Made by a program: the position numbers and the translations under genes. A model generated the notes under the pieces. The model was not told the DNA's origin. It did no database searches and saw only the letters and a program-made list of their open reading frames with translations. DNA of 61,365 bases, counting the filler, from Ionaspis alba (lineage: Eukaryota), in NCBI GenBank assembly GCA_964255285.1. It is 5 parts of 5 records of this genome, joined end to end, with 100 filler letters (N's around TTAATTAATTAA, not from the genome) between each part and the next. Parts side by side here need not be neighbours in the genome. Positions count along the whole stretch, not along the records: positions 49,218 to 61,365 come from CAXUUL010000526.1; 4 more parts are not named here. The stretch is one strand, 5' to 3'. How positions within the stretch are numbered: the first letter of the stretch is position 1; the number at the start of each line of letters is the position of its first letter. Positions 3,157-60,118 of the stretch are shown here, one piece after another.

Positions 3157-3618
3157 GCTAATGTCTGTATGCGTTGAGAACTAAGGGACTCCTTGGCCAG
3201 AGTAGCTAGCTAGCTTGTGCTGTGATACTGTCAAAAATCTCGTAGCTGTGAGAATGCTTCTCGCAAAGAGGTTGTCAGGCAATGAGCCTTAAACCAGAAG
3301 GGAACGCGCTTCGCGTAAAGTGGTTCTCGCGCTAAGATTCGACGGTTCGGGAAAGCAACATCAATTATGTCTCGAATGCGGCAACGGCTTGCTCGAAACA
3401 CCCCAATTTGAATCACTTTCTTTCGCTCTATAAAGTCACAAGACTCTATCGGCAAAGCCGCTGATGAGGAAAGGCTATCATTGCTGGTAATTCGCCCTCT
3501 CCTCAATAGTCTTTGCCATCCTGGGAAGTAAAGCAGCTCTAATTAGTCCTTAAACAGATCTCCCAGCAACCTCTCTAACAGCACCATACACCCTCATTTC
3601 TACCACTCAACCACAGCC

Positions 3619-6600: not shown

Positions 6601-7931
6601 CTTTTGCTGTTGCACGAATGCTTGGTTTAAATCCGTTGGTCTTGAGTAAGATTACGTCGGCATTTCACGTTGTCTTGGAGGAGGGGAAGGTGAATCTAGG
6701 CCTCAACCTCAAATTCGAAGCCAAGCAGATGAAGGTCCTGGGGTACTCGCGGAAAGGCAATACCGGCTGGGAATTCAGCGAAAAGGCTATCCAGCTCCTC
6801 CAGCAATACATGATGAAATTTCCAGACTTCATCGCCGCGATCCAGCGAAACCCTCAGGGAAACATCTATTCTGCCTCGGAATTCTATCCTGAGGAAAGTG
6901 CCCAAGCGAAGATCAAGGAAATCCAAGCATGGCTAAAATCTATTGAGTCAAAGAGCTTCGAGAAGGTTCCCCTTGAGGCAGAGCAACTGGATTCAGAAGT
7001 TGTTATGGACATTGAGAAAGCTGCTGAAGCCGCTTCAAAAAATGGTGCGGCAATAGAAGGCAAGAAGGTCAAAGCTGCCCCACGAAACGCTTTGCTGAAA
7101 CCTTCTGACGCCGAACACCGACTCGGGAATCAGCGCTTCACCATCGGAGATCGAGTGGTCTATGTGCAAGACTCTGGAAGAGTTCCTATTGCTACTCGAG
7201 GTACGGTTGTTGGCATTACTCGTACGGCTAGAACAACATTGCTAGACATCGTCTTCGATGCCACCTTCATGAGTGGGACAACGCTCAATGACAGATGTTC
7301 GCCATTCAGGGGTTCAACTGTGCCGGTTTCGTCGGTACTTAATCTCACTGATAAGCAACTAATCGTCGCTTCTAAGGCAGCCGACGTTCATAGACCACAA
7401 CAGCCATCCCAGCCTTTGACTGTCAATGGCTACGGTGCACCGATGGGACCAAATGGTTTTGGACAGATGGTTCCTGCCCGTACGCCTCCACCGCTAAGAG
7501 GATCGTTTCGTGGCGCTATCTCAGGGCAACAGAACGGCGCTCGTGGGGGATTTCCAAACCGGGGTCGTGGTGGACCAGGGTTTGGCGATGGTCAGATCAC
7601 ACAAGGGCTGCCTAGTCGTCCGCTCTCTACCAACGGCACAGGTCGAGGCGGTCAGTCGAATGGATCTTCATGGAGAGGTAGAGGTGGTGGAGAGCCTTTC
7701 AACCAGCGGAACGGATATACGCCAATAGATCGAGGAGATGCCGACACGAACGTTATGAGAACAAACCCAAATTTCAGACCTCAATCATATTCGAATGTAC
7801 CGCCTCCGGCAAGTCTTGACTCCAGAGGCCGTGGTGGACGAGGCCGAGGGGGCCGAGGTGACGGCTTCAGAGGGAGGGGCGGAGGCATGTCCCGCGGCCG
7901 TGGGACTGTAGCGGCGGAGCAGCTGCAGTGA
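3619..7931 (+). CDS. XRN1: 5'-3' exoribonuclease 1
   Basis: MGVPKFFRWLSERYP, LYLDMNGIIH, FDSNCITPGTEFM, GEGEHKIM and YGLDADLIML. One intron (5324-5370) joins the 571-aa and 927-aa ORFs. The long C-terminal extension fits Xrn1 rather than Rat1. Confidence 0.97.
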
Positions 7932-10889: not shown

Positions 10890-10989
10890 NNNNNNNNNNN
10901 NNNNNNNNNNNNNNNNNNNNNNNNNNNNNNNNNNNNNNNNNNNNNNNNNNNNNNNNNNNNNNNNNNNNNNNNNNNNNNNNNNNNNNNNN
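10890..10989. other. Within-scaffold assembly gap (100 N)
   Basis: Plain run of 100 N with no linker. Confidence 0.95.
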
Positions 10990-12234: not shown

Positions 12235-12334
12235 NNNNNNNNNNNNNNNNNNNNNNNNNNNNNNNNNNNNNNNNNNNNTTAATTAATTAANNNNNNNNNN
12301 NNNNNNNNNNNNNNNNNNNNNNNNNNNNNNNNNN
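12235..12334. other. Artificial scaffold linker N44-TTAATTAATTAA-N44
   Basis: Six-frame stop spacer flanked by 44 N on each side. Confidence 0.97.
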
Positions 12335-12787: not shown

Positions 12788-14651
12788 CTACTTTCCCTTG
12801 CCCTTGCCCTTCTCAGCTTCCGCTCCACTACCCCCGCCACCAACTCCGAACCACCCCAAAAACCCTTGCTTCATGCCCTTCAGCTGCTCATCCCTCATTT
12901 TCTCCTCTTCCGCCGCCTGTTCCTTCAACCACTTCTCGCCATTCTCCCTAATCTGCTGCTCCAACCACTCATACTGCTTCTGGCCCCTCTCCCTCACCTG
13001 ATCCTGCCACATTTTCCCCTGCTCAAACGCCTCGGTATAGCTCGTCTCTCCCTCCATTTGTCCCTGTGGCACATTCTTGATCCCCAACGCGCCGCCCAGC
13101 AGCGAGACGCCCGATCGCTTTGGTCGTTTGGATTTCTCGGCGGCGAGCTGCCGCTCAAATTTCTCGCGGGCTTGTTTTTCGCGGAGGGCGAACTCGGTGG
13201 GTATGTGTTTTCCGGAGAAGGAGGAAAGCGCTTTTCGAGCGTCGTCAAATTGCATCGTTGCGACGTATTCGAGGAAGGGGATTAAAGAGACGAGTTCCTT
13301 GTCTGAGGGGTCGCCGGTCCATTTCGGAAGGAGAATGGCGTTTTCGGGTTGGTGTTTGGCGTGCGAGGGGACGGTATCGAGGAGGATGGTTTTGGTGAGG
13401 GGGCGGTTGAGGTAGGAGAGATCCTGAATCGATATTAGCATGAAGCGATAAGAGAGAAAGAAAGCGGAGAGATTGAAGACTAACCTTGATGTATTCGCCA
13501 TTTTTGTATAGCGTGGCTTCTCGAAACAGTGAATACATAATGATATGGTAGGGATCGAGCTTCGCGATGATAGGGGCAGCAATGGCGTAGGGTATACTAG
13601 TGAATAGCACAAGCTCATAATATTGGCTAAGATAGCGCAGGAAGTAATCCATGCCTGGTCTCTTAGCCATTCGCCATCCATGTTCGCGCGTCCACTCGCT
13701 ATGGATCAGTAGATCCTCCAAGCTGAGTACGAGTGTGTATGGTCTCTCCCATGCGTCTCCATCTGGTAGCAAATGCTCGAATGCTGGCTCGTTGTAGTAG
13801 TTGAGTGTACTCGCTAGCCGCGTTTTCGCTCGATTGTAGAACAAGCCGAATCCCCATCCCGATGGCGCGTCAGGGTGTTTTCTCTCCTCTTCTTCCGTCT
13901 CCCAATTTCGTCCCAAGTATATGGGCCCTGTGATTGCAAATAGGAACATGCCAGCGAACATCCAATTCATCAGCGTGTTACGTCGCCGTTCTGCAGAGGT
14001 AATGTATGCGCTTGCTGGCAGCTGTCGATCCCCTCGACCACCACTTGATGTTTGAGCTATAGATGTTTGCTCTGATTGTGAGGACGAAGCCTCTGCCAAC
14101 TCTGCGTCGAGGGTGGATGGGATGCCTTTTGTCAAGTCGTGCAGAGGAAGCCTAACTTCCTCCTCATGCTTGTCGATCTTGGCTGGATCTATCGCGGAAG
14201 GTGAAGTATCTTGTGGTGCAGTGTTCTGATCCGACGATGCTCCTGTTTCGAACTCATCTTGCAACTTCGAGTACTCAGGATGAGAGCTGGCCTCGGAATT
14301 CGAAGGCTGCGCAGGAGCGGGACCTGGCCCAGTCCCACTAGATGACGGGGTTGTATTCTCCTCTCCATTTGCCCCTGTCTTGAACTCATCTTGCAATTCT
14401 GAATAATCGTCATTTCCTGACTTATCACTGCTCTTCGAAGTTGCAGCAGCTCCACCTAACGTACCAACATGAGATACACTTTGCGAGATAGGTCCATGAC
14501 GAGGTGTTTGAGGGGTGTGAGTAGGTGGTTTGTAGTCAATGGGCTTTCGAGGCTTGTTGTTCTTCGCATACGTTCGAGTTTGAAGAGGTAGGGCTATTCG
14601 GATCGGAGATGGGTGATGTCTCAACGACCGTACAGCTGCGCGTGCCAACAT
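12788..14651 (-). CDS. TIM50: Mitochondrial import inner membrane translocase subunit Tim50
   Basis: Presequence MLARAAVRSLR, TM segment, YYNEPAFEHLLPD, PYTLVLSLEDLLIHSEWTREHGWRMAKRPG and KDLSYLNR across one intron (about 13425-13484). Confidence 0.95.
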
Positions 14652-15163
14652 AGTCGAGTATAAGGCTAGGCTGAAGCGCAAGCACCTTCCCACCTTCAGG
14701 TCAGTACATACTAACTTCGAACCCAACTGGCAAATCAAGGAACTCTAGCTCTCTAGATAAAAGTCATGGAAATTCTGACGATCTTGTCGGCGAATGGAAG
14801 ATCTAAAACTCCGGACGCGATCCCCGGATGTTTATAGACTAAATTTAGTTTGCCGCGCTCATGTTTTTCCTTCTTCAGAAAGTTTCCACCCAGACGGCAA
14901 GAAATTTGACGCGGTGTTCCTAATTCTTGGACACGGAGTTGTATCAGCTGGGAAGACCGATGTAACATAAATCTTACCTTTAAAGAACAGCAGCGAGGAA
15001 TCCTCTGAACTGCCTCTGTTCCGGTGGTATCGATACAAATCACCATTCACTTTCCAACATGATCAACTATGGACCTGTGTGAGAGCCTCGTCTTTTCATC
15101 GATCCATTCTCGTTTCAACTATATCTCGTTTCCTATTTATCCTTAACTTTATATCTACTCATC

Positions 15164-16242: not shown

Positions 16243-17449
16243 TTACAGCTCCTCGTCAACTTCCATCGAGCCATTCTGATGCCCGTTTGTATCTCCTTCC
16301 GTTTTCGCGACTGATGCTTCCTTATCGATCATCTGTCGCGAGACTGACACGATGTTGTCCTCAATCAATTGTTGCCCGACATCTTCCAGGTCTGCAATGG
16401 ACATTAGTGACAGCCTTGTGTGCACGAGAGGAGCGACATACGCTTCTTAGGATCCAATTTCCCCACATATCTCGTCTTCAGCTGGTCTTTTGTAAGCTCT
16501 GTCTCCTCCTTGACCCTCTTCTCGTAGCCTTCCGCAAGCCCTACCAGTCTCTTGAGCTTCTCCTCATTCCTCACTCCTTCGTCTCGGAAGTCATCCATTT
16601 GCAGTGCCTCTGTCCAGACATGCTTATGTAAATTCATAAGCATATTCTCCTCCAGTCCTGTCTTTCGATAGTTGATCCCTATACTATAGTAGTGTCTATT
16701 GAGACCGTGAATCAGAGCTTGTATTGACGGTTTGTTGAGATGTCCGAGATTAGATGTAGTTTGCCGTGGTTCGTGTCCCATCATAAGCGTTTGAGGATTA
16801 ATGAGCCGGAATGCGTCTATCACAACTTTACCCTTGACAGACTGTATAGGATCGACCACGACAGCGACAGCACGAGGTGTGAGTTGTTCGAAGGATTGTT
16901 GAGTGTTTATGTCCACAGACGATAACCAACAGCCGAATCCCGGATGTGAATGGTACCAGCCAACGACCGTCTCATGCCTGTTTATCCAATAATCAACAAC
17001 CGAGATGTATTCGATCAGCTTGCAGATACACACCTCCCGGTTTGCTTCAACATGTCCATCATTTTGGTCTGGAATACAGGATCCACAGCTTCGACGCTGA
17101 CACCAGTTCCACTCTGTGGCATGGCGAAAACATCAACCACTCTGACAGTATAGTCGTCCACAAAGCTTCCTAGCATCAAACCCATGACTTCCATGGGAAC
17201 ACCAGCTCTCCCATGCCGCAACATCTTGAGGAGTGCAAGGGAGGAGATGTAAACGGTTTCCGAGTTGTCAACGAGGTTGGTGTCCTAATTAGCACGACTG
17301 TCTCAGCACAAAAAGCCCGCTCCAAGCTCCAGATCCACATAATGCGTTCATACGACCAGTTGATTTGGGGTACTTACCGCACCAGGAGCTCCTCCGCCAG
17401 GGCCGCCCATGCCCGCTGCAGCGGCCATCATTCTATTGAGCCTGTCCAT
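16243..17449 (-). CDS. RPN11: 26S proteasome lid JAMM deubiquitinase
   Basis: [31 protein letters not shown] and JAMM motif [19 protein letters not shown]. Three introns; starts MDRLNRMM. Confidence 0.97.
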
Positions 17450-17813: not shown

Positions 17814-19942
17814 ATGTCTTCTTTCGCCCCTTTGGACCCGGTTGTCCACAACTCTAGCAACAAGAAGTGTGTAGCATATTTCTACGATTCAGACGTCGGC
17901 AATTATGCCTATACAGCGGGGCATCCGATGAAGCCGCATAGGATCAGGTTGGCACACAGCTTGATCATGAACTATGGGTTATATAAAAATATGGAGATAT
18001 ATGTAAGTTCTACGGATGCAACCCAATTCCCTTTTCCAGCTCAGTACCTGAAGCCATATCTACTTCCCATTTGGTGGACCCCTTTTGCCTCCTCCTTCAC
18101 CTGCGATCACATGAGATTAACCATGCTACTGAGCTAACATCTTCAGCGCGCAAAACCTGCCTCGCATCTTGAGATGACACAGTTCCATACTGACGAATAC
18201 GTCGACTTCCTCAAGAAAGTCACTCCAGACAACATGGAGTCCTATGTCAAGGAACAAGCAAAGTTTAACGTGGGAGATGACTGTCCAGTGTTCGATGGTC
18301 TATTTGAGTTCTGTGGCATCAGTGCAGGAGGCAGTATGGAAGGTGCCGCAAGACTTAATCGTGGCAAATGCGATGTCGCAGTGAATTGGGCTGGTGGCCT
18401 ACATCATGCGAAGAAGAGCGAAGCGAGCGGATTCTGCTACATCAATGGTTAGTGTTCTGCATGAGCCTTTGTTAAGTAGGGACTAACAATGAACGTTAGA
18501 CATCGTGTTGGGTATTTTGGAGCTATTGCGCTACAAACAGCGGGTGCTTTACATTGACATTGACGTTCACCATGGTGACGGTGTGGAGGAGGCATTTTAT
18601 ACGACTGACCGAGTCATGACGGTTTCTTTCCACAAGTATGGCGAGTACTTTCCAGGCACTGGGGAGCTACGAGACATTGGTGTCGGTCAGGGGAAGCACT
18701 ATTCGGTCAACTTTCCTTTGCGCGATGGCATCGACGATGCCTCCTACAAAGGAGTTTTCGAACCGATTATTAAGAACGTCATGGAATACTATAGACCGGA
18801 AGCTATCGTTCTGCAGTGTGGTGGCGATAGCTTGTCTGGTGACCGTCTGGGTTGCTTCAACTTGAGCATGGCAGGACATGCAAACTGCGTCAATTTTGTC
18901 AAGAGCTTCGATCTTCCAGTTCTGGTACTGGGTGGTGGAGGCTACACCATGCGAAATGTTGCGCGCACTTGGGCTTATGAGACTGGATTGCTTGTGGGCA
19001 AGACGATTGGACCAGATTTGCCATACAACGACTACTATGAAGTGAGTTCTTACCAATTGCCGACCTTCATTCATTCGCTAATGTTCTCAGTACTACGCAC
19101 CTGACTACGAACTGGATGTAAGACCATCTAACATGGAGAATGCCAACAACGTCGACTACCTGGAAAAGATTAAGAAGCAAGTCATTGAGAACCTGAAGCG
19201 TACTACCTTTGCCCCGTCCGTACAAATGACAGACGTTCCTAGAGATCCTGAGGGTATGGACGACGAGGCAGACGCAATCCTCGATGACCGAGACGAGGAC
19301 GAGAATATGGACCAGAGGCATACCAAGCGTCGCTGGGATAAATATATCGAGAAAGACGGGGAGCTGAGTGAGAGTGAGGATGAAGAGGAGAGTCAGAGGA
19401 ATGGCGTCAGACGACAAAATCACAACCAGAAACGGCGAAACATTATGGACTACCAAAATCCAAATGCAGCGTCAGACGATGAGAAAGTCGCTAGCCGGAC
19501 GCGACGACGTAGTCGTGAATCAGCTGGTAGCGCATCTCGCCCTGCTGCAGTCACGAATGGATCAGCGCACTCTGAGAGCAACACGCCCAGTCCAGCACCA
19601 AGTCGTCCTGAAAGTCAAGATTCTTTAGTCGCCGACGATACTGCCATGCAAGATGCCGATATCGATATGGATGAGGAGCCATCTCAACCTGCGACAGCTA
19701 CAAACCAATTTGCAGCTGAAGGACCTCAAGAGGCCACTCCTCCAGAATCTCCACCTTCAACTGCAGCAGTAGCCGCTCCAGCAGGGCAGCCAGCCGCTGA
19801 TCCAGGAGACGTGGTAATGGATGAAGGCGACGTCAGTGACGATCCTGAGGCGGCTCAAGAAAATGGCCTTGAGGAACGTGATCATGAGGATGTAACGGCA
19901 GAAAAGACTGCTGAGATTGCGCAAGAGCAGGAGCAAACCTAG
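17814..19942 (+). CDS. RPD3: Class I histone deacetylase
   Basis: [67 protein letters not shown] and an acidic tail. Three introns. Confidence 0.96.
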
Positions 19943-21861: not shown

Positions 21862-24344
21862 TCATATCCCGTTTTGTAACAAAAAAGTGGCAGTATTAAT
21901 TTCTGCCTCAATGATCTTGCTCCAGCGCTGCAACAACCGAATATCAACAATGATTCTACCAAATAAAGAAGGAGGTTGGCAATATAACACGTACCTCGAT
22001 CGCTGTGGTATTCTTCGCATCAATGCTCTCAGTCAGACCAGGGAAGACATCACCTGCATACCCAGTCCACAATCTGTAGTTCACCAATTAGTATTATGGA
22101 TCTAACGCACACAGAGGACGGATCTTACCCTGGGGCAAAGACTACATGTTTGAACCACTTTCTGCTGTCTAGTCCTCCCTGCCACAGAAACTGCCGCTCG
22201 AAGTACTTGTACCTATCATTGACCTTCTTGACCTTGTGAGACATTTTCGACCTCTCCGACCACTTCCACCACGGTACGTCATCATTGATAGTACTAGCCA
22301 GAGTAGCAGCGTAGGTGTCGAATGCTATCGCCTCGACCTTGAGATGCGCGATTGCTTTCTCAATGTTGGAGAAGCTGTAAGATCTCATACCCGGGAATTC
22401 AGAAGCTGCAGCTTTGTCGATCACCTTTTGAAGGTAGACCTCTAATCCTAGGGCATAGTCCGTCGTATTCAACGGGATGATGGGTGTCTCAACAAGATTG
22501 GCAGCAAAGAGAGACCATACTTTGGTGATCGCCACGTGATAGTGCCACCCTTTGTCACCAAACTTGTTCATCCAGTCGAAGCTATCGTAATTAGAATGGT
22601 AGTGGTATACCGGACTGTCTGGTCCTCCACCAAAGCCGAAGTCTACCGAGGGAACGCCCGCGAAATCCTGAAATGCAGTAAAATCAGATCCTGAGCCCAT
22701 GGTGCCAATGTGGCCGTTCCACAAATCTCGGACGGTTTGACCTTTAATGGTTTGATTTGGAGACTGCACTAAAGCGGTGGCCTCATACAATGCTTTATTG
22801 AGCAATGGAGAAGCAGACGACTGGAAGTGTGGACCACGGGTACCAACGTCAAGATTGAGATAAGCTACAGCGGCTTCTGACAGCCATGGCAAGTATTCTT
22901 CAACCCATTCAGTAGAGCCAATCAAACCATATTCTTCACCATCCCAGCTTGCAAAGACAATCGTACGGAGAGGCTTCCAACCTTTCTCAAGAGCTAGACC
23001 AAAGCTGCGGATGACTTCGTTCATCGCGGCAGATCCACTATTTGGGTCACCAGCCCCACCAGCAATCCAGGCATCTCGATGATTGCCAAGGATGACCACT
23101 TCGTCAGGAATGGTGCCGTTGATGATGCCAATGACGTTCCATAACGGAGTGGTGACATACTCTTGCTCATTGACCAGGTTCAAGACCAGATCCTTGGGTG
23201 ACGGTCCAATGTTGTACTTGACTCCCTTGTATCCAAGGCCTCCTCCTTGCCAGCATTTGTTGAAATCTGAGGCTTTCGGACCATGACCGTTCAGAGCTTT
23301 CAGGAGCGGGAGGGCGTCTCGGAACGAGATCGGTAGAGACGGGATGGAAGGAATAGAACCATGGGGGTCTTGTCTCGGAACTCCTGGCTTGGACGGATAG
23401 CCTGGTGTCGTAGGATCACCAGGCGCCACGCTCAAAAATTGGGTGCTGCCTCTCTGAACACTACTAGGGTTCCTAGCAGGTCCATCCGGATAAGCCTTGT
23501 ATCGATTCTCTTCCGTGATATGCCCGTCCTCTTGGGGATCAGAATAGATGACCGTGCCGACCATTCCAAGCTCTTGTGCTCGTTTCACCTTCAGACCTCT
23601 GAATATTTTGCCGTACTTCACAAGAGCAATCCTGCCAGCAAGACTGATGTTTGCCTTGACGAGATCGTCATAATCTTGGTATGTACCAAAGTTGGCGTAG
23701 ACGTACTGCGCTGTCACGTTGCCATTCGCCGAATATCCATGGAATGTCGGAATGCGGTTGGGCAGGCCGCTGGTCGAATCTTCTGCAAGTACGTCTTCCT
23801 CCAAAGAGCACTCGTACTTGATCTTGTACCCTGCCTTACTTGAATCGGATTTAGCTCTTCTACTTAACGTCTTTCCGCCGTCGCTTGAGGCTTCCAGAAG
23901 CGCAAGTCGATGGCCGAGAGGATAGTTGATGTACACATCGTATGGGACGATCTCAACGTTCTTGACACCAAACTCCTGCCATTTCTCTTTCGTCCATACT
24001 GCCTGACTCAGATTCTTGCCAGCAAGATGAGGTCCAGCTGTGTAGTACTGGCTCCATTCTTTTGCCTTTTCTGCACTAGGCGTCTCCAGAAGCACCTTCT
24101 GGAGGCTTTCATATGACGGTCCATCACTCTTCGGCCACGTCTTGTGCGAATGTGATAGCGACCAGAGACTAAATCTCTTGCCGCCGTCGCCCCAATCCCG
24201 TATCAAGAAGACTCCAGCGGCAACAACTAAGGCACTTGCGAGGATGATGGTACAGAAGCGGCGAATGATATGGTGAGGGTAGCGCTGTTGTGGGGGTGCT
24301 ACTGGGACAGCTTGTATCAGAGGTGTCCTCTCCGTAGCGGACAT
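21862..24344 (-). CDS. Peptidase M28B, glutamate carboxypeptidase II / transferrin-receptor-like (Vps70/Tre family)
   Basis: N-terminal TM, PA domain, GNHRDAW, AGDPNSG, SWDGEEYGL, GSGSDF, YHYHSNYD and WFKHVVFAPG. Two 3' introns lead to LWTGYAG...LLQNGI*. Confidence 0.92.
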
Positions 24345-24547
24345 GGCGGGCTTTTGATCACTATGCATTGAGGCGTGTCAGTCTAAACGGGTCAACTCGT
24401 GGAGTGTGTCTCGTCCAAAGAGATCCGGCAAGGAAGCGCAATAAGAGACAGAATAATAGCTGACCTTCATTTGTGCAATAAGCTATAGTCAGGAAGATAA
24501 AACTACCTTCCTCATCTGATTCTGGCGCGATAGACCGTTGATACTCC

Positions 24548-24647
24548 NNNNNNNNNNNNNNNNNNNNNNNNNNNNNNNNNNNNNNNNNNNNTTAATTAAT
24601 TAANNNNNNNNNNNNNNNNNNNNNNNNNNNNNNNNNNNNNNNNNNNN
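24548..24647. other. Artificial scaffold linker N44-TTAATTAATTAA-N44
   Basis: Same structure as the linker at 12235. Confidence 0.97.
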
Positions 24648-36849: not shown

Positions 36850-36949
36850 NNNNNNNNNNNNNNNNNNNNNNNNNNNNNNNNNNNNNNNNNNNNTTAATTA
36901 ATTAANNNNNNNNNNNNNNNNNNNNNNNNNNNNNNNNNNNNNNNNNNNN
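36850..36949. other. Artificial scaffold linker N44-TTAATTAATTAA-N44
   Basis: Same structure as the linker at 12235. Confidence 0.97.
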
Positions 36950-42323: not shown

Positions 42324-43756
42324 CTAATCATTGACATCTACTTTTTCAAGAGACTGTGCGTCTTGGATAGCAAGCAGACCTCGGTTTGCAGGCCAAACCT
42401 CCAGAGCCCAAGGTAAGTGCTTGGTCACTATGAAACTCATGCCCCTGCTACCAACATTTTTAAGCATAGAAGCGAACTCGCTCCCCGAAGCCACACCCTG
42501 TCCTGTCACAGCATTCCTGTACTGGGTTATTATCTTGCTGATAGTAGCAACTAGGACCTTTCGAATATCAGGGTCGAGATCGGTTTCGTTGAGGTATGGA
42601 ACGAGCCAGCCGATAGCGTTGGGAGTGAATTCGACGGGGTTTGAGTTCTCTGCACCGGATTTCAGCCGACTCAAGGTGGTCCCCAAAGCCTTTGGAAAGC
42701 TAGATGAAGTGGCCTTTATCCCAACGATGGGCTGTCTGGCATAGCAGCTCCAGGAAGCAGAACCATTTTTGTCAAGGTTGATCAACCTATCCGCAACGTG
42801 CTGAAGTATTTTGCTGAGGCACGGAAGACCATCGAATTGGGCGACCATATCAAAGAATTGTTCTCCGAGCCTCGCATCTTGAAATTGAGCCATCGCTGCA
42901 TCGAATATGGCGATTGGGATAGCACCGGATAAAGCTGGCACCAAACTTAGATGTTGAAGAGCATCCTGGTCCACTCCTTCATCGTTCCTCAGGCTTGGAT
43001 TGATGTCTTCTGCTGTAATGGCAGGCAATGCTATGTGTTCCGCACCATCGTCCTCCCTGCTCTGACGAGAGATCTTCTCGTGCTGCCTTTGATCAAGCCC
43101 AAGAATCTTCCGTCTCCCAGCAATCTTGGCGATATAAATCATCTCCAACTTTGCGTACTGTAACCAGAGGTCTCTTGACTGTTTACAGAACCGTAGACCT
43201 CTTTGCATGTAGCTTCTTGCTCCAGTCATATCTCCTTGATCGTCCATGACATATTTGGCCGCATAAATCCACAACTCAGGTCTCGTAGGGTGTAGCCGCA
43301 AGACGCTTGTGAGAATCTGCGACACCTTCTTGTAGGCTTTTTGTCTCCTGGCGTAGTCCAAGTATTGCATCCACAGTCCGATGTCACCATGGAACTTCCT
43401 GGTTGATCTGTCCATGATAAACATTATGCGCTTCTGCCCTGCGTGCCTGCTGGCTTTAATCCCCGTTCTCCAGGCCCTCTTCCTCCTCAAGGCTTCGAGG
43501 TTCATTTCATATTCCGCATACCGAGCATAATCCGAGGGATGCGAGCCTCGCGCATTCAACTTGTGCTCGAAATCGGATCTCTTCTTCGCAATCGACGTGA
43601 CTTCGGCCTGAAAACGCTGTTAGTCTTTTGCTCCATATCTTCGGAATCTCGGCATTGGTTGTGGACCTTTGAGAAAATCTTCTTCCTCTCGAGCTCCTGA
43701 AGCTCTGGAATTGATTGCTCAAGATAGAAGCGGGCTTTGTCACTCGCTCCGGCCAT
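42324..43756 (-). CDS. UTP6: U3 snoRNA-associated protein 6 (HAT repeats)
   Basis: MAGASDKARFYLEQSIPEL, DYARYAEYEMNLEAL, KFHGDIGLWMQY, LRLHPTRPELWIYAA and ARSYMQRGLRF. One intron. Confidence 0.93.
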
Positions 43757-45281: not shown

Positions 45282-48200
45282 ATGGCTCCAAAGTTTACGG
45301 GGGGAGATGTCATGGTATCGTTCTCTGGAAAGTGGATATCATATATACACACCGGAGCCGCCTATGCTGCTTTCGTGGGTGCCTTGATCACTGGTCTTGC
45401 TCTCCATTACCATAAGATTGTGCAAAACCAGTACTATGTGAGTCGGACCGTGGGAGAAACCATGCTTGCGGCTGCTTACAAGAATCGGTCTAGGGCTATC
45501 CTCAAGAGTGGTTCCCATCAGTGTCTGCTACCATTGGTGACCGGTATCCTGAGCGCTCAGTGTTCCAGTTCTTCATTGCCCTCACGTCCGGTAATCCGTG
45601 CCCAGTCATGCTTGAACCATGCGGCATGCTGACGTGGTCTACAAAGGTCCTCGATTCGCCCTCGTCTTTCTTTGGTATGTCTTGACGGCACGACCGAACT
45701 CGAATCTACCAAAATGGATAGCAGGCGTGGGACTCTTCAGGACCCTAAGCTGTGGAGGGTGGACATATGTCACATCGACGGACGATCACGATTGGCATGA
45801 CATTTTCATGATATCCTATCTCGTTGCTACAATACCATGGACTCTGGGTTGTCTTACCCTCAGCCCAACCAACACAAACGCCTTGAAATACAGAAAGATA
45901 TTCGCGGGATTGTTCTTCGGCTCTATAGTGCCATTGGTGTACTTCTTTATACAACACAAGGTTCATCGGGTTGCTGGAGGTATGGTAAATATGTCTCTCT
46001 TTTGATATGAAATTAACATGCCTAGCCTACACCACATATTCGTTCTTCGAATGGGCCCTTGTGTTATTCGACGTCAGCTTTGATGCTGTCACTGCGATCG
46101 AGTTTGAGAACTTCGAGCTTGTGGTCAAAGATGTGAAAGGAATGAGCAGAGGGTATGTGCAATGGCTTCCGAAATAAACCAATGTATGGGAATATCGTGC
46201 ACTACTGTCAGAGTCATGTTCTGATGGGTCGTCCTCGACAGAGACAACAAATTACTTGCCGATTCTTTGCGGGAAACAGAGTATGTATCTATGTACAATG
46301 GCAAGAGGATTGCAACTCACAACCTTTATAGAAAAGATAAGCCAATTGGCAAGGCACTTGATCAGGCTTTCTCTTTCGACGAAGCTTTAGACGCTGTGGC
46401 AGATACTTACAATGGCGTAAGCTAATTCCCTTATCGTGATCTCGGGCATATACTAAGTACCGTGTTAGTTCGTCTTCTGGTCCATCCTGACATCACTTGG
46501 CCTCAGTGTTTGGTGTAAGTCCTTCGATTTGTGTTTTGAGTGGCTGCTGATCAGTGTAGACTTTCCCTTATGGCATATGGGCTTGTCTGGCTGGGAGGCA
46601 TTCGTGATGTCCAGTATATCTCCCCTGGTACTTGGCATTGGTTCCCTTCGTTCGCTTGTCATTCGAAATATCCGATACATTCACCTGCTCTCTCTGTCTG
46701 GACTGCTTGCCTATTTGGTTGCACAACCCGAACTGCGTCTCACCATGGTGGGATTTGGAGTCTCAATGTCCTGCTTAGCGTGGTCAGCTACATTTTACGG
46801 TGAACGTGCCCATCCAGTTCGCTTGGAGAATCGAGCTCTGGCGTGGGGCGCTGGCTTAATTCTTTCGAGCCTTGCTAAGTTTGCATTCTATACCAACAAT
46901 CCAATCTGGCCTATCATGCATGCCGCAAATGGGGGATGGAACAAGCTCGGGATTGCGCTGGCTGTGCTCGCTGCCTTAAGATCGACTAGACGTGTTGAAG
47001 CTAATAGTGGTGCTATCGAAATGGCTGGCAAGCCTAGAGGTTCATCAGTGCTAGCGGCCCTTGGTTTGGCTGGTCTTTTCTTCGGAATGCATTCCATGCT
47101 CTCGGATTCGAGTACCATGATTCTGTGGGTGTGGGATGGGTATCCTGTTCGTGGTCCTATTGCGTATAACGGCGTCCTTACTCTCACAGCAATGAGCGTT
47201 GGTCTTTGCGTAGGGACGTTCTGTCCCGAAGTTGTCACTCCACGGATGAGACTTTCTACGGCGGCATTGGGCACGATCGTGGTCCTGTATTTCAAACACT
47301 GGTTTGGTTACCTTGGAGCGCTGACCCTCGCCTTTTCCTTGATGTCCTTATCCCCAACACTCATCACTTCAGCTGTCCGTGGCAATCCAGGGGTCTCCTT
47401 CGGCCTAGGCTTCTTCCTCTACAACATCATGGTCCTTGCACATGTCTGGGTGGTAGCATACGCCTTCGTACCCGGTGGACCCATTATGCGGGAGCACACT
47501 GACTATGTTGTGACCGCGATGATGCTGCTTCTCGGTGCAGGCGTCTGGGGTAGCGGGGAAGCCGGACGGTCTCCCAAGTTTAGAGCTCGGACAGAGGGCC
47601 ATAGACGGTACAAATCATCCTACTACGTCTATGTCCTCCTCATCCTTGAAGTCCTTGCTGTCTCCGTCTCCTATCTCCGTTTCCCTACCAACGACTATGT
47701 CCCATACCACAAAGACGACAAGGTTCTCACGGCCGCCGTCTGGACCATCCACTTTTCTCTCGACAACGATATGTGGTCTTCCGAACACCGCATCCGCGAT
47801 TTGATCAAAGAACTCGAAGTCGACGTCATCGGCCTCGTCGAATCGGACCTCCAGCGCATCATCATGGGCAATCGCGACACGACGCAATTCCTAGCCGAAG
47901 ACCTCGGAATGTACGTTGACTTCGGTCCTGGCCCTAACAAGCACACATGGGGCTCTGCGCTCCTGTCTAAGTTTCCTATCCTGAATTCCACGCATCACCT
48001 GCTACCCTCTCCTGTGGGTGAGCTTGCGCCCGCCATTCACGCAACGCTTGACGCGTATGGTGAACTCGTCGATGTGGTTGTATTCCACTCGGGTCAGGAG
48101 GAAGATCGGGAAGACAGGCGTCTGCAATCCGAATATCTGGCTAAGCTGATGCATGACTCCCCACGACCGCTGATCCTCATGAGCTATCTTGTCACCAAAC

Positions 48201-48581
48201 CCCTTGAAGGCAACTACAACACATATGTCGGTGAGAAGAGCGGGATGCGAGACATCGATCCCAGCGACTGGGATCGCTGGTGCGAGTATATCTTGTACAA
48301 AGGCATAAAGCGGACCGGGTACGCGAGGGTGAGCCGATCGACGATTACAGATACGGAAATTCAGGTAAGACAATCAATTTCCCCATTGGGATCGAGGACT
48401 ACATGCTGACATGCTCGGTTGACAGGTTGGGAAATTCGTCGTCGGACAGCCTGAAGGGGGCAACGATATGATCGCCGAAGAGCAGGTCGCGCCAGGGTTG
48501 AGATTTCCGGCATTGTTTAGAGGTCAGGGAGTCAGAGGACATCAGTATCATGTCTTCAATGAGCCGAGATATTACAGTTAA
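45282..48581 (+). CDS. CWH43: GPI-anchor ceramide remodelling protein Cwh43, 9 exons
   Basis: [89 protein letters not shown] and ITDTEIQ. Confidence 0.95.
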
Positions 48582-49117: not shown

Positions 49118-49217
49118 NNNNNNNNNNNNNNNNNNNNNNNNNNNNNNNNNNNNNNNNNNNNTTAATTAATTAANNNNNNNNNNNNNNNNNNNNNNNNNNN
49201 NNNNNNNNNNNNNNNNN
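49118..49217. other. Artificial scaffold linker N44-TTAATTAATTAA-N44
   Basis: Same structure as the linker at 12235. Confidence 0.97.
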
Positions 49218-49354: not shown

Positions 49355-50517
49355 ATGTGTCGGTACTTAGATCTTGACATATGCATCTACTACTCTGCGT
49401 GCTGACTAGAATTACAGTTGGTTTGCCTACGTCTCGCCCACAGAGGAATGTCTCTTGGAAGACGTCCTAATTCTCCCTGTAATCCTCTCTCTTCTACCAC
49501 TTACAATACCCCCACACACATTACTGACCCATACCTTAGGCACACTCCCTTTCCCAACAAGTCCACGAGCATTACCTTCCCAAATTGCTCACCCATTCTC
49601 TCACCAATATAACCACCGAACAAGAGATTGCTGCCCGCAATCGTCTCTTCAATGTCGACGGCTTTGGACTCGCCTGGTACACTCCCAATCGCTCCACCTT
49701 CGGCGCCACAGCCGACGGCCCCCGACCCGCCCTCTATAAAACCGTACAACCTCCTCTTCATGACACGAACTTCCGAAGTATCTGCGCAAACACTGCCACG
49801 AAAGCATGTTTCGCGCACATCAGATCAGCAACCGCGACGCCAATTGTGGCGGTGAACAACCACCCATTCGTCTTCGGAAGACATGTTTTTATGCACAATG
49901 GCGTCGTGGAGCACTTCATTGACATCTGTCGTGAGATGTGTAATCTCATGGATGATGATGCCTACGCCAATATCTCCGGCTCCACAGATTCCGAGCATTT
50001 TGCAGCGTTGTACATGACATACCTGACGGGCGGAAAGGGCAAGAAAGCATGGGAGGTGCAATATCCTGTTACGGAAATGCGGGACGCGCTGCAGAAGACG
50101 ATGAAAACGGTCGTCAGGCTGCAGAAGGCGAAGCTAGGGGACAAGGCTCACGCCAACAGCCTGTGCATCGCCACCTCGGATGGTTCCCGCTTCGTGGCCA
50201 TTCGCTGCTTGAATCATGCCACGGAGCAGCCACCGTCGTTATATTACTCGACCACTGCAGGCGTGACACTGAATCGAAAATACCCTGGTGACCCTGATGG
50301 GAAGGAGAATCCCAAAGCGAGAAAGAGTGCAGAGGAGCATGGGAGCCATGTGATTGTTGCGAGCGAACCGTCGACTTACAAGAAGGAGGAATGGACTTTG
50401 ATTGAGAAGAATCACTGTGTGATGGTTGAGGAGGATGGGAAGATGAGAGTCGAGGAGCTAAAACATCCTAAGGAAATGAACTCCGTTGTCAGAGATGTGT
50501 TTGGGAAAGAACATTGA
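49355..50517 (+). CDS. Class II (Ntn) glutamine amidotransferase, Dug3/EgtC-like
   Basis: Spliced start MCRWFAY places the nucleophile Cys at residue 2. Also NVDGFGLAWY, FAHIRSAT, NNHPF, FMHNG, GSTDSEH and VIVASEP. Two 5' introns. Confidence 0.9.
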
Positions 50518-51651: not shown

Positions 51652-53006
51652 TCAAAGGCGTAGAGCATCCTCGTCAGCTTCAATTGCTGCAGCAAGAACA
51701 TCATCGAAAGTCTCCTGAGGTTGTTGTTGTTCCAAAGGCTCAAGGGAAACATGGCGAAGAGATTGTTGATCATCGCCCTTGGCGCTTTCACTTTCCCAGA
51801 TCTCGATCTCCGCAGGGGGGATCTCTTGCTCAGCACTGGCAGCCTTGGCTTTCTTAGATGTTTCAAATTGAGCCAGAAGATCTTGCCAGCTCTCCTTGGA
51901 CTGTTCGGTAGTCTCAACGGTTGGGCCCTCAAGTGAAGTTGTATCTTTCTGCTCAGTTGTGGCACACACTTGCTCGTTTGCCGCATTGGAGTCCTTCTCG
52001 GCCGGTATGATCACATAGGACGAAGCATCACAGCCTGCGGCGTAAAACTCAGAAGCCTCCAGGTCTCCGAGGGGAGTACGAGGCTCATCGGTCATCATGT
52101 CCTTCCGTGAGACAGGCCGATGAGTAGTAGCGACAGGTGCAATGGATAGCGATGGGTGTTCAGACGGTGGGATATTCTCCTTGCCACGATCGTCTTTTTC
52201 AGCAACACGGCCCTCGTCATCAGAGATGTCGAGCGTTTGGGTGGAGAATTGCATCAGGTTGCCAAGTTCCTCATCGGGAGTGTCTTCATGGATATCGAAC
52301 AACCATCCCTTAGGTACGGACTCGTCCAATGTGGATACGGCAACGGGTTCCGGCTTGTGGGAAGGGACGGTGGCGGCGAGAGCGGCGTCGATGGAGAACG
52401 GAAGGCCATTAGAGAGACCGTAGGCTGGGGGATCAATACGAGTAAATGGGGACGAAGAAACCCGACGACGAGATAGAATTCCAACTCGTTTGCTTTTCGG
52501 AGAACGGCCTGCAGCTGCAGGCGCAGAATTTGGGCCGGTTACTTTCCGCGTCGAGCGAGCCGTTTCCAGGCGTCGAGGTGTTATGATGGGACGGGCGATG
52601 GATGCTGGAGCACTGTCGGCCTGCTTGAGAACGAAATGAGAGACTTTGGCCGGTTTGACGGGATAGCCAGCGAGGTTCTTGGCTTTCTTGGAAGGAGAAG
52701 CGAGAAGCGATGGGTCGACATTTTCAGAGTCGATGTCGTCAAAGCTGGGTGGAGAGTATCGACGTTTGACTGGTGAAGCCAGAGTCACAGGAAGAGCTGA
52801 GGACGCGTCAATTGATGTAATTATGAATTGGGATGTGATTCTATGCAGTGCATTATGGTTTTGTGATGGGTTATGGGCAAAATTGGTATGGATCTGCTCA
52901 TACCATTCTGTTTGTTCTTAAGATTTCCCAAGTTCCTGAGTCTCGCACCATCAAGGGAAGCGAAGGGCTGTCTCGCAGGAGACTGGTAGTGAGCGAGGGT
53001 GGCCAT
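51652..53006 (-). CDS. Hypothetical 415-aa disordered protein with ABBA, KEN and D-box motifs (Acm1-like candidate)
   Basis: Exon 1 (53006-52904), GT-AG intron (52903-52797) and exon 2 splice in frame. Motifs RQPFASL, FDIHEDT, GKENIPP, RTPLGDL and several S/T-P-x-K/R sites. Confidence 0.8.
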
Positions 53007-54184: not shown

Positions 54185-54284
54185 NNNNNNNNNNNNNNNN
54201 NNNNNNNNNNNNNNNNNNNNNNNNNNNNNNNNNNNNNNNNNNNNNNNNNNNNNNNNNNNNNNNNNNNNNNNNNNNNNNNNNNNN
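54185..54284. other. Within-scaffold assembly gap (100 N) with 55 nt duplicated on both flanks
   Basis: 54130-54184 is identical to 54285-54339. Confidence 0.95.
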
Positions 54285-57118: not shown

Positions 57119-60118
57119 TTACACGACTTGTTCCATTTTGGGATCCTCAGTATGCCCAGTGTGCTGTGCTAATCCTGCCATCATCTTTCCCAATCCTCCC
57201 CTTGTATGGTGACCAGTCGTATGCGAATGGGTTTCTGCTATAACACCACCATCGGCACCTATCGAGATCGGCCTCAGGGGCGTTCCCCCGGCACTGAAGC
57301 CACTTGCGGTAGAGTTGCGGCGCTGCAGTCTCTTCGCCGCGTCCTCATCCTCTTTCTTATGAAGCGATTCGCTGGGAAGGAGGATTGCACGATCGAGCTC
57401 GTAAGGTAAGCCACGGTGACGACCTCGAATTTGCATAGCGATAATGACGAGTTTGGAGACGACACCGAACTCGGCCGAGAACGAGGCGTTGATCGTTGGG
57501 TAGCCGAGAGAGAGCCCGACGGTACCGTAGGCAGAGACGATCTCGAAAAGGCATGCTGGAAAGAAAGGGGAAGGTTAGTCGAGTACCAGGCAAGTAGAAA
57601 AGGGCTTTCTTTGGCGTACCAAACATAGAGAATGCAACGTCATTTGGGTCTTGAAGCCTGCTACCCTCGGCGATGGCAATGATGAAGAGTCCCAAGAAAA
57701 TGAACCAGAGATCGAAACTCAGCTGACGACGTAAGTGCGCGCCTACGTAGCTCGGTTCCTTCTCGTCCTCGTCCTCCTCAGGCTTCGAGCCATAGATTCC
57801 AAGACTCTTTTCTTCATACACGTTGGTACGGCGGACGGAAATGGCGATTGGGAAAACAGATATGTACATCATGATGAGATAGGAGACTTGAATACCAGGG
57901 TGTAATAGAGATAGATTCACCGCCGCAGTGCCAGCTGTGCGAGTTGAAGTTGCTTGAAACCACCCGTCGAGGATTCGGTAGCCCACGGGAATAGAGGTGA
58001 CAGCTGTGTCGTTGAGCTATGGGCAAGAATCAGTGGAAGGTCCAAGGTTCATGAGCGTGTAACCTACGTCGAGAATAATGAAGAGTACCAGATCAACACC
58101 ATTTAGCACAACCAGTATCCAGAAGAGCCACCAGGTAGCCGAGCTAGGGAAGAGTAAGGTGAAACATCGACGCGGATGGTCGAGAAGAAATTTGAACTCT
58201 TCCCAGATACCGCTTTCACGAGGGACGAGTCGCTCAAAGGCCCAAATGATAAAACGTAGCATGCAGGGGAATCCGGTGTTCCCAATGATGATCAGGAACG
58301 ATCCCAACAATAAGGGTAATACGGCTTGTTGGAAGGATATCATAGAATCAGGTGTAAGTGTGAAGCCGAGGTCGTTGAAAAGAGTTGCAGACGTGAATAT
58401 TCCCCTGTTAAGGCGTCAGCGATGGTAAAGAAGTCCGAAACGCAGAACATACCACCAGACACGATTTTGGCTCACAGCATCCACTACGGAACCCCAGGTG
58501 TCTGTGCGGACGATCCAAGGTACAAAAGTGATAACTCCAAAAAGGTGAATCAGGGTAAAGTAACCTATCGAGAGTTAGCTCATCAAACACAAAGCGCTGG
58601 ACCTAGGAGGCGAGAAACCTACAAACAAGTAAAACGGCCAGAGTCTTCAATGATCTATACTCAATACCACCTAGTTCTTCTCGCTGTTCTTCTGTGAGAT
58701 CAATAAAGGCAGAATTCCTTCCAATAGTAGGCTGCCAGCTCAAATAGGGCATGGGCTCCTTGTCTCGCGTCGTCGTTGGGCGGACACTGGAGAAGGAGCC
58801 GGCACGAGACCTCATTCGTCCTAGTGACGTTGGAGTCTTGTGAAAGGGCGATGTAGTTTTACTCTGGGTTGTGCCCGTCTTCCTGAACGTCAATCTTGAT
58901 AGATGAGAAGGCATCTTGTTGAGTCGGGGATGTTTTGGATTCGATTCGTCGATAGTGATATTCCGCTTTACAGCACGGTCACCACCATTGGGTGCCTCTC
59001 CATCCTCTTGATCCGTGTCGTGCTTAGCAAGATCGTTTTGATCAATTGAGCGAGTTCCTTCCAAATCGGAGTGACCTTCGTCGTTCAAAGTTTGGGGGAC
59101 GTCGCCTCTATCGAAGTCTCGTGGACCAGGTATTCGAAGAGTTCCTTTGTCCTTCGGATTGCGTTGATTCTCCAGAAAGGCGATGTGTTGTTCCGCACTC
59201 ATCTTTTGGGGCAAACGATCCATGGGAGTACTTGGACTACGCTCAAGCTCGTCCGCAAAGGTAATGTTACGATGAAACGAAGTAAGCTTTTGAGAAGATA
59301 GATCCAAAGGTGGAAGGTCCGAATCTTCATTACTGGATTCAGAGCTTTGCTTCTGTGCATCCGAAGAGTCGGAAGATGGTACAATCCGTGGATCCTTTTT
59401 CGGCCTCTCCAGGAATGGTGAGAGTCTGTTTGGTCCTATGGGATTTCCATCTTCGCGCAGCACGACGATATTTCTTCCGTTCACACCTTGCTCTTTCCCT
59501 CCAATATCCTTCTCGTCAATGGCCTGAGTATTCGTACGAGACCTGCTCCTTGTCCTCTTGAAGTTCCTAGCCTCTCTCACAACGTGCTGGAAGCGTTTCT
59601 CAAACCAGTAAAGGCGAACAAAGACAACAAATGTATTGATAAAGATGGGATTGGCGACCATTCCGATGAAGTATATGACAATCTGGCTCGTTTGTTAAGC
59701 CTTGGTATTTGTGCGAGCTCGAACAAATCCAACAACTGACCTGCTGGTACGTAGTAATCAGGTTGAGATCCTTACTGCACCATATGTTAACCATTGGATC
59801 GGTGTTACGGAGAGTGTTCTTACGTATTCAGACCGCTTTGAGTAGCTGCTCCACTGGCGAAGAACAATGCGTCAATGTATGCCAACCCTCCTGCCGGATA
59901 GAGCAGGATTGAGCCGACGACAGCAAGACCCATCAAATAAAGATCTGTAGTCCACATCTGAGTCAACATAACAGAAAGTGCGGGACAAAATCTGGTGACT
60001 CACAATGAATGGTGATGAAGCTCAAACGCCTCTTTTTGAATGGCGAACCCGGGTTATGGCCTCTAATCCAATTCCAGACGTCCATTGGAGGACCTAGTAT
60101 CATACCTCTGAGTACCAT
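57119..60118 (-). CDS. TRK1: Trk-family potassium transporter
   Basis: Pore loops ATQSGLNT, FNDLGFTLTPDSM, STRTAGT and AYGTVGLSLG. Also FVRLYWFEKRF, REELGGIEYRSLK, LDHPRRCFTLLF and IRGRHRGLP. Multiple introns. Confidence 0.94.

Follow-up and report, generated by a model that had tools for sequence, protein, structure and literature searches.

A two-exon gene of Ionaspis alba encodes a 415-amino-acid protein that carries, in this order, an ABBA-type motif, a KEN box and a destruction box (D-box), and this ordered cassette was kept in 211 of 215 homologues of at least 300 amino acids. The gene lies on the minus strand at 53006..51652 of a 61,365-nucleotide stretch of genome assembly GCA_964255285.1 (hereafter the window), in the part taken from record CAXUUL010000526.1, and all features of the protein described below are on the minus strand. 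Judging from the identity of the motifs, their invariance, their spacing and a predicted helix, the cassette probably docks, through three degron pockets, on the propeller of Cdh1 or Cdc20, coactivators for the ubiquitin ligase APC/C (anaphase-promoting complex/cyclosome).

The gene and its ordered degron cassette

Exon 1 (53006..52904) contains 34 codons and the first base of the next codon and encodes MATLAHYQSPARQPFASLDGARLRNLGNLKNKQN. It is followed by a 107-nt GT..AG intron (52903..52797) and by exon 2 (52796..51652), which supplies 380 further residues and a TGA stop codon. The splice junction (...KNKQN-A-LPVTLASPVK...) is identical in the annotated orthologues of Lambiella insularis and Trapelia coarctata, and the gene and the product given in a preliminary description of the window are confirmed. 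The motif coordinates of that description also proved exact, namely FDIHEDT at 52299-52279, KEN at 52182-52174 (39 aa after F) and RTPLGDLEASEF from 52080 (34 aa after K). Likewise, the N-terminal RQPFASL in exon 1 and four full cyclin-dependent kinase (CDK) sites, SPAR, SPVK, SPSK and TPRR, were all present as described, the latter at residues 9, 42, 68 and 107.

Motif logos were drawn from 214 homologues, with denominators that differ from motif to motif. The ABBA-type motif FDIHED (residues 201-206; 52282..52299) is preceded by a conserved Trp, and its logo reads W200 x F211 [D/E] I207 [H157 Y54] E189 [D194 E17] of 211, or K-[GS]-W-x-F-[DE]-I-[HY]-E-D-T in extended form. The linker TPDEELGNLMQFSTQTLDISDDE (residues 207-229; 52213..52278) is conserved as well; it contains a predicted helix followed by TLDISDDE, and the family consensus for the stretch between the ABBA motif and the KEN box is NLMxHSTxTLDISDDE. 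In the KEN box GKENIPP (residues 239-245; 52165..52185), K, E and N are present in 211/211 members, and proline occupies +2 in 193/211 and +3 in 206/211 (extended logo D-R-[GN]-K-E-N-[IV]-P-P). The D-box RTPLGDLEA (residues 274-282; 52054..52080) has the logo R210 [T85 S56] P190 L204 G173 D149 L195 x A142 of 210. Position 9 is taken by A (142), V (22), P (20) and T (19) in most of these members, with Asn outside the five commonest residues. The D-box runs into a conserved extension, SEFYAAGCDASS (residues 283-294; 52018..52053), in which positions 11-16 read [D127 E54] [F151 Y54] Y183 A150 [E120 D37] G194 of 210, giving the extended logo [DE]-E-P-R-[TS]-P-L-G-D-L-x-A-x-[DE]-[FY]-Y-A-E-G; a "D-box extension" is attributed to Qin et al. 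2019 in a citing passage.

For the homologues of at least 300 amino acids, the ABBA pattern scored was Fx[ILV][FHY]x[DE] (published consensus: Fx[ILV][FY]x[DE]; PMC5717348) and the D-box pattern was RxxLxx[ILVM]. KEN was found in all 215, ABBA in 212 and RxxLxx[ILVM] in 209. The distance from ABBA to KEN is nearly constant (median 39, quartiles 39 and 40, range 35-48), and that from KEN to the D-box is variable (median 34, range 15-66). Twelve positions are invariant when 26 diverse members are aligned (mean column identity 29%; exon-2 numbering): F166, I168, K205, E206, N207, P210, R239 and L242 are inside the cassette motifs, E24 and N25 belong to a second KEN-like box, S134 lies in the island LPFSIDAAL and W333 in a C-terminal patch. 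A profile over 208 homologues resolved about eleven conserved islands, seven of them outside the cassette, and conservation peaks for the whole protein in the cassette.

It is very improbable that these motifs are chance features of a low-complexity protein unrelated to the APC/C. Their regular expressions are short, and in 200,000 shuffles of the window protein RxxLxx[ILVM] alone arose in 28%, KEN in 5.4% and ABBA in 1.4%. However, all three occurred together in 0.019% of the shuffles, and the ordered cassette with gaps of 10-80 aa was obtained only twice. The retention of the cassette across homologues at near-fixed ABBA-to-KEN spacing also argues against chance, as does the invariance of the defining residues across classes, between flanks that vary.

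The exon-2 product was modelled with AlphaFold2 on an alignment of 26 sequences. The mean predicted local distance difference test score (pLDDT) was 52.2 and the predicted template modelling score (pTM) 0.18, and the protein is therefore disordered. Only one element was modelled with confidence, a helix that follows the ABBA motif directly (exon-2 residues 173-186) and has a 10-residue block at a pLDDT of 86; the D-box and its extension reached 69-75. In profile searches of PDB sequences, TLDISDDE...GKENIPP (52165-52240; exon-2 residues 186-210) gave a weak, non-significant match (E 0.06-0.6) to TITLEVE...DKEGIPPDQQ of ubiquitin, a resemblance that is probably due to chance.

Proposed docking and comparison with Acm1

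In the docking that we propose, W-x-F-[DE]-I-[HY]-E-D would be seated in the groove between WD40 blades 2 and 3, the helix after it would run along the propeller, GKENIPP would occupy the KEN site on the top face, and R-[TS]-P-L-G-D-L would fill the D-box groove of the same propeller. Because all three pockets would be occupied at once, the protein would compete tightly with other substrates, in the mode of Acm1; we infer both this simultaneous engagement and an inhibition that goes beyond mere degradation. A D-box without Asn9, followed by the conserved [DE]-[FY]-Y-A-E-G extension, would fit a poor hand-over to Apc10, that is, pseudosubstrate-like behaviour. RQPFxxL, DSENxDP and the SP/TP sites would put the protein under CDK control and bring about its APC/C-dependent removal in the end. 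An Acm1-type competitive or pseudosubstrate restraint of the APC/C, most likely with Cdh1, in which the CDK sites would act as the switch and the N-terminal degrons would end the restraint, is the leading explanation, quite possible though short of probable.

The N-terminal motif, RQPFASLDGARLRNLGNLKNKQN (residues 12-34; 52905..52973), is D-box-like, with Phe for Leu at position 4. In the 45 of 214 homologue models that include exon 1, its logo is R45 Q36 P45 F45 ... K45 N45 x Q45 N44 and the consensus is RQPFxxLDGxRLxNLxxxKNxQN. The second KEN-like box, DSENVDP (residues 57-63; 52711..52731), fits the [D/N]-x-E-N-x-x-P frame of KEN boxes, with the logo D179 [S120 T29] E186 N186 [I/V] D179 P185 of 186 extracted. 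It has the D at -1 and the P at +3 that flank KEN boxes according to He et al. 2013 (PMC3690534), a paper that is used throughout this text from excerpts.

According to that source, the central inhibitory region of S. cerevisiae Acm1 (APC/C-Cdh1 modulator 1) spans residues 59-128. It holds an A motif at 61-70 (F61, Y64, E65, E66), an adjoining helix to about residue 80, an NEN at 90-92 that is able to occupy a KEN site, a KEN at 98-100 with P103 (KENxxP) and an SP site at residue 102, and D-box 3, R119-I-A-L-K-D-L-S-V127, in which position 9 is unusually a V; Acm1 also has an N-terminal, Cdc20-specific D-box. The cassette order ABBA-KEN-D-box and the first nine D-box residues given in the preliminary description agree with this account. 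The family has the same order of ABBA, helix (predicted here), KEN and D-box, and the ABBA motif is 39 aa from KEN here and 37 in Acm1. In Acm1, the fifth residue of the ABBA motif is a Glu that makes contact with a Lys specific to Cdh1 (excerpts of PMC5717348 and PMC3690534); this Glu is present in 189/211 family members, and the proline of KENxxP recurs as P at +3 in 206/211. A 13-residue linker between KEN and D-box was modelled as enough to reach both sites on one Cdh1 (PMC3690534), and the family minimum of 15 aa would be compatible with a single propeller. Both D-boxes are without Asn at position 9, which is A, V, P or T in 203/210 members here and V in Acm1. Additionally, an xEN box, an N-terminal D-box-like motif, CDK consensus sites and disorder are found in both. 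The family differs from Acm1 in its seven further conserved islands, and its C-terminal W-E-S patch and [DE][FY]YAEG extension have no described Acm1 counterpart. Acm1 is further characterised by CDK-dependent 14-3-3 binding and by inhibition of APC/C-Cdh1, through the Cdh1 WD40 domain, with inefficient ubiquitination of Acm1 itself.

Several points weigh against an inhibitor of the Acm1 type. The family protein is twice as long as Acm1 (209 aa), in which nothing corresponds to its N-terminal half. No S/T-P follows the family KEN (IPPSE), so the CDK site that overlaps KENxxP in Acm1, as described in the excerpts, is absent here. An S/T-P pair does occupy D-box positions 2-3 in 141/210 members, and CDK phosphorylation there would more likely weaken binding at high CDK, the opposite of the Acm1 logic. 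The preliminary description had envisaged conservation confined to the three motifs; instead, about eleven islands are conserved, including the DSENxDP box and the C-terminal patch. Moreover, the cassette by itself is no proof of inhibition, because ABBA motifs also occur in the true substrates cyclin A and Clb5 (PMC5717348). In A. nidulans, PucA is necessary and sufficient for the inactivation of CdhA, with no redundant pathway, according to excerpts of Paolillo et al. 2018 (PMC6078057); therefore, any inhibitor would be auxiliary to PucA-CDK or act downstream of it, as Acm1 is to Cdc28. Finally, searches of PDB sequences at E up to 10 gave 3 matches with the family profile and 7 with the cassette profile, and neither set included the Acm1 chain of 4BH6. 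Of 645 matches to the cassette profile among short proteins, the best 120 were all family fragments or short models, which shows nothing on Acm1 either way.

What stands of the Acm1-like candidate put forward in the preliminary description is a real and strongly conserved cassette with the order and geometry described for Acm1. The orthology suggested with it is unsupported, since no homology to Acm1 was found with either profile. The family is therefore treated here as Acm1-like in docking, and not as a demonstrated Acm1 family member. The excerpted text of Paolillo et al. 2018 (PMC6078057) states that A. nidulans lacks any obvious homologue of Acm1, Emi1 or Rca1. We put forward tentatively, and as an unlikely case overall, that the family constitutes an Acm1-type APC/C-Cdh1 pseudosubstrate inhibitor throughout filamentous ascomycetes, convergent with Acm1 or diverged beyond recognition, that would be stabilised or switched by the G1/S CDK (PucA-NimX).

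As to the presumptive docking surface, Cdh1-type genes were collected from metagenome contigs with a degenerate pattern as intron-free open frames, and 12 WD40 domains were aligned. The frame on contig L061 matched the CDC20/Fizzy WD40 domain (PF24807, 437.9 bits). Three Cdh1-type frames (L063:1496-2581, L012:2450-3556 and L034:2-967) carry a low-complexity insertion of 30-45 residues in one propeller loop, which is absent from L061 and L077 and may be either a genuine part of the loop or an intron left unspliced in frame.

Securin and other readings of the conserved islands

The C-terminal patch, EIEIWESESAKGD (residues 364-376; 51772..51810), resembles a separase-site pseudosubstrate, and its logo is [I123 F33 V18] [E113 Q35 D11] [I146] W176 E174 S166 x S166 A154 K136 of 176. 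It raises another reading, in which the family would be the securin of Pezizomycotina, an APC/C substrate timed by its KEN and D-boxes whose patch, [S/D/E]-[IFV]-E-[IV]-W-E-S, would plug separase as an uncleavable pseudosubstrate. We regard this as a doubtful but serious alternative. Separase sites have the form (S/D/E)xExxR, and securins share this frame with a non-Arg P1 (excerpts of Rosen et al. 2019 and of a 2023 review); the patch fits the frame, for example as E-I-E-I-W-E in the window protein. By position (n=176), 117 members have E, D or S at P6, 174 a hydrophobic residue at P5 and 113 E at P4, with W in 176 and the next E in 174. In the same excerpts, the EIEKFFP motif of human securin (PTTG1) is said to have been identified through homology with the securin of C. 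thermophilum. In addition, the excerpted text of Cromer et al. 2019 gives an account of a securin family found throughout Pezizomycotina, with C. globosum XP_001225358.1 as its seed, in which KEN and D boxes are conserved, as is a patch whose Glu is invariable. Compared by description only, that account could fit the present family, which is likewise disordered and Pezizomycotina-wide, conserves both boxes and has a Glu patch in the separase-site frame. The sole named neighbour in the ESM Atlas was a cluster from Ascomycota, 55% of whose members carry PF04856 (Securin); its score is 0.77, and it serves as a lead only.

Other features fit a securin poorly. In known securins, a separase-binding segment of ~90-115 residues lies C-terminal of the pseudosubstrate and is followed by an LPE/VPE motif (same excerpts of Rosen et al. 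2019 and the 2023 review), whereas only 0-45 poorly conserved residues without LPE/VPE follow the family patch, and several members end 8-10 residues past it. The Glu in the P4 register is replaced by Q in 35 and by D in 11 of 176 members. Rather than being N-terminal, the degrons occupy the middle of the protein (residues 240 and 274 of 415), with only the D-box extension and the last ~40 residues after them, and the patch is at the extreme C-terminus. PF04856 matched 0/26 members at E up to 10, the securin cluster of the ESM Atlas is distinct from the family's own cluster, and the name "securin" is absent from the database entries among the matches listed. An ABBA motif, which this family has, would in a securin risk checkpoint-resistant destruction. 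We know of no securin with such a motif. No Chaetomium member was present in the best 120 of 891 matches to a Sordariomycete query.

Two observations on the family members touch this comparison. Hundreds of database gene models are short and begin inside the protein, with a Met that closely precedes the ABBA motif (MKxSWFFDIHED...), as in P0304 with 189 aa versus P0364 with 376 aa. These models keep only the cassette and the C-terminal patch, so that KEN and the D-box appear "N-terminal", and such apparent N-terminal degrons may matter for comparison with published securin descriptions. In Sordariomycete and Leotiomycete members, an added conserved block, L-[LQE]-[EQ]-P-[IM]-E-[GK]-[TA]-[GE]-E, lies upstream of F-E-[LV]-W-E-S, at a distance of ~2-3 residues; no such block is evident in the window protein or other Lecanoromycetes.

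Three of the remaining islands lie between the second KEN-like box and the ABBA motif. The basic island AGRSPKSKRVGILSRRR (residues 130-146; 52462..52512; family form AGRSPKSKRxGILSRRR) combines an SP site with a run resembling a nuclear localization signal. SPFTRIDPP (residues 150-158; 52426..52452) was recovered by the conservation profile, with the family form SPFTRVDPP, and LPFSIDAAL (residues 166-174; 52378..52404) contains a short predicted helix (135-140 in the AlphaFold2 model). Such islands, seven in all outside the cassette, would fit a reading of the protein as an ordinary, efficient APC/C substrate with its real job in the basic, SP-rich N-terminal half and the cassette as a degradation module, as in cyclin A and Clb5. 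ABBA motifs are present in substrates (PMC5717348), lysines were found around the degrons of the 415-aa protein, and PF16500, the APC/C-binding region of cyclin A, gave weak matches in 2/26 members, with a best E of 0.007, below threshold. We nevertheless consider an ordinary substrate unlikely: the N-terminal half matches no known family or domain, the highest conservation of the protein is in the cassette, and the D-box is non-canonical at position 9 with a conserved extension. The N-terminal region of cyclin A/Clb5 (PF16500, Cyclin_N2) resembles the family in having D-box, KEN and ABBA in a disordered stretch (PMC5717348), but the family has no cyclin box, its motif order differs and its PF16500 matches stay below the Pfam threshold.

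Mad3/BubR1 also uses KEN, ABBA and D-box jointly to block a coactivator (excerpts of PMC5717348 and PMC3690534), whereas the family has no TPR domain or Bub3-binding region and no Pfam match. Further candidates were rejected. Sororin did not fit, the Sordaria orthologue having 701 aa and no KEN in the excerpts of PMC12758814, versus ~360-450 aa and an invariant KEN in this family. Whi5/Nrm1, Mad3 and any folded domain were dismissed for want of a Pfam match. For the other islands, readings as PP1 (SILK/RVxF), PP2A-B56 (LxxIxE), LC3-interacting (LIR), SUMO-interacting (SIM) or 14-3-3 motifs were set aside as weak, with no consensus fit across the family.

Family range, names and genomic surroundings

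The family is widespread in Pezizomycotina. Among 8,000 scored candidates from a 90%-clustered collection, 619 relatives were found at E<=0.001; among representatives of 50% clusters, 522 passed this threshold, 160 of them at E<=1e-30. Names of members were taken from the best 120-150 matches listed per search. The closest named relatives among the matches listed are Lecanoromycetes with 58-66% identity, including Xylographa, Trapelia, Lambiella, Lasallia, Umbilicaria and Acarospora, which places the window in a lichen-forming ascomycete or a close relative. Many members come from Sordariomycetes, such as Colletotrichum, Fusarium, Verticillium, Metarhizium and Hypoxylon, and further named members are from Pyrenula, Tolypocladium, Trichothecium, Aspergillus navahoensis, Thermomyces stellatus and Lachnellula. 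No member outside Pezizomycotina was present among the matches listed. With the cassette alone as the query, the ESM Atlas returned no usable match.

No Pfam match was obtained for the exon-2 product even with the threshold relaxed to E 10, and the only database names among the matches listed are "hypothetical protein" and "thymidylate kinase". The latter label is carried by many UniRef and NCBI entries (e.g., P0029, P0203, P0216 and P0374). A thymidylate kinase was rejected: 4/4 members tested, one of them bearing that name, had no Pfam match at E<=0.01, and no kinase family was found in 26/26. Because the tested members have no kinase or other Pfam domain, the label is a propagated misannotation. 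In the literature, we found neither this family nor an Acm1-like protein in filamentous fungi described, the main caveat being a possible overlap with the published fungal securin.

The window genes beside the candidate are ordinary housekeeping genes. Pfam matches on open frames identified an NmrA-like gene, an RBBP4/CAF1C-type WD40 gene (1809-2863), Xrn1 (3547-7928), a NIF/FCP-type phosphatase (12791-14744), Rpn11 (16407-17132), a histone deacetylase (18493-19101), an M28/transferrin-receptor-like peptidase (22128-24377), a P450 fragment, Utp6 (42327-43619), a PGAP2IP/Cwh43-like gene (46469-48406), a class-II glutamine amidotransferase (49540-50514) and a TrkH-type cation transporter (57122-59694). 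No coactivator, separase or cohesin gene was among the Pfam-matched open frames, which lie within 222-50514 and 57122-59694 of the window. The window also contains ten runs of N totalling 552 bases, several of them paired 44-base runs ~12.3 kb apart, with N-run places at 10890-10989, 12235-12334, 24548-24647, 36850-36949, 49118-49217 and 54185-54284; these are not biology.

The way in which filamentous fungi inactivate APC/C-Cdh1 at G1/S is understood only in part, PucA being required in A. nidulans (excerpts of PMC6078057). The family offers a concrete candidate that can be tested by mutation, with invariant docking residues and members in Aspergillus, Fusarium, Colletotrichum and Verticillium. 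If the family is a fungal securin, the presence of an ABBA motif and a second KEN-like box would still be new to the literature and would bear on the sequence in which anaphase events occur; a proper name could then also be given to hundreds of entries now listed as "thymidylate kinase" or "hypothetical protein". If it is an Acm1-type inhibitor, it would supply the kind of inhibitor for which the excerpted account gives no obvious Aspergillus homologue, and would add a second layer of control over nuclear division cycles in multinucleate hyphae.

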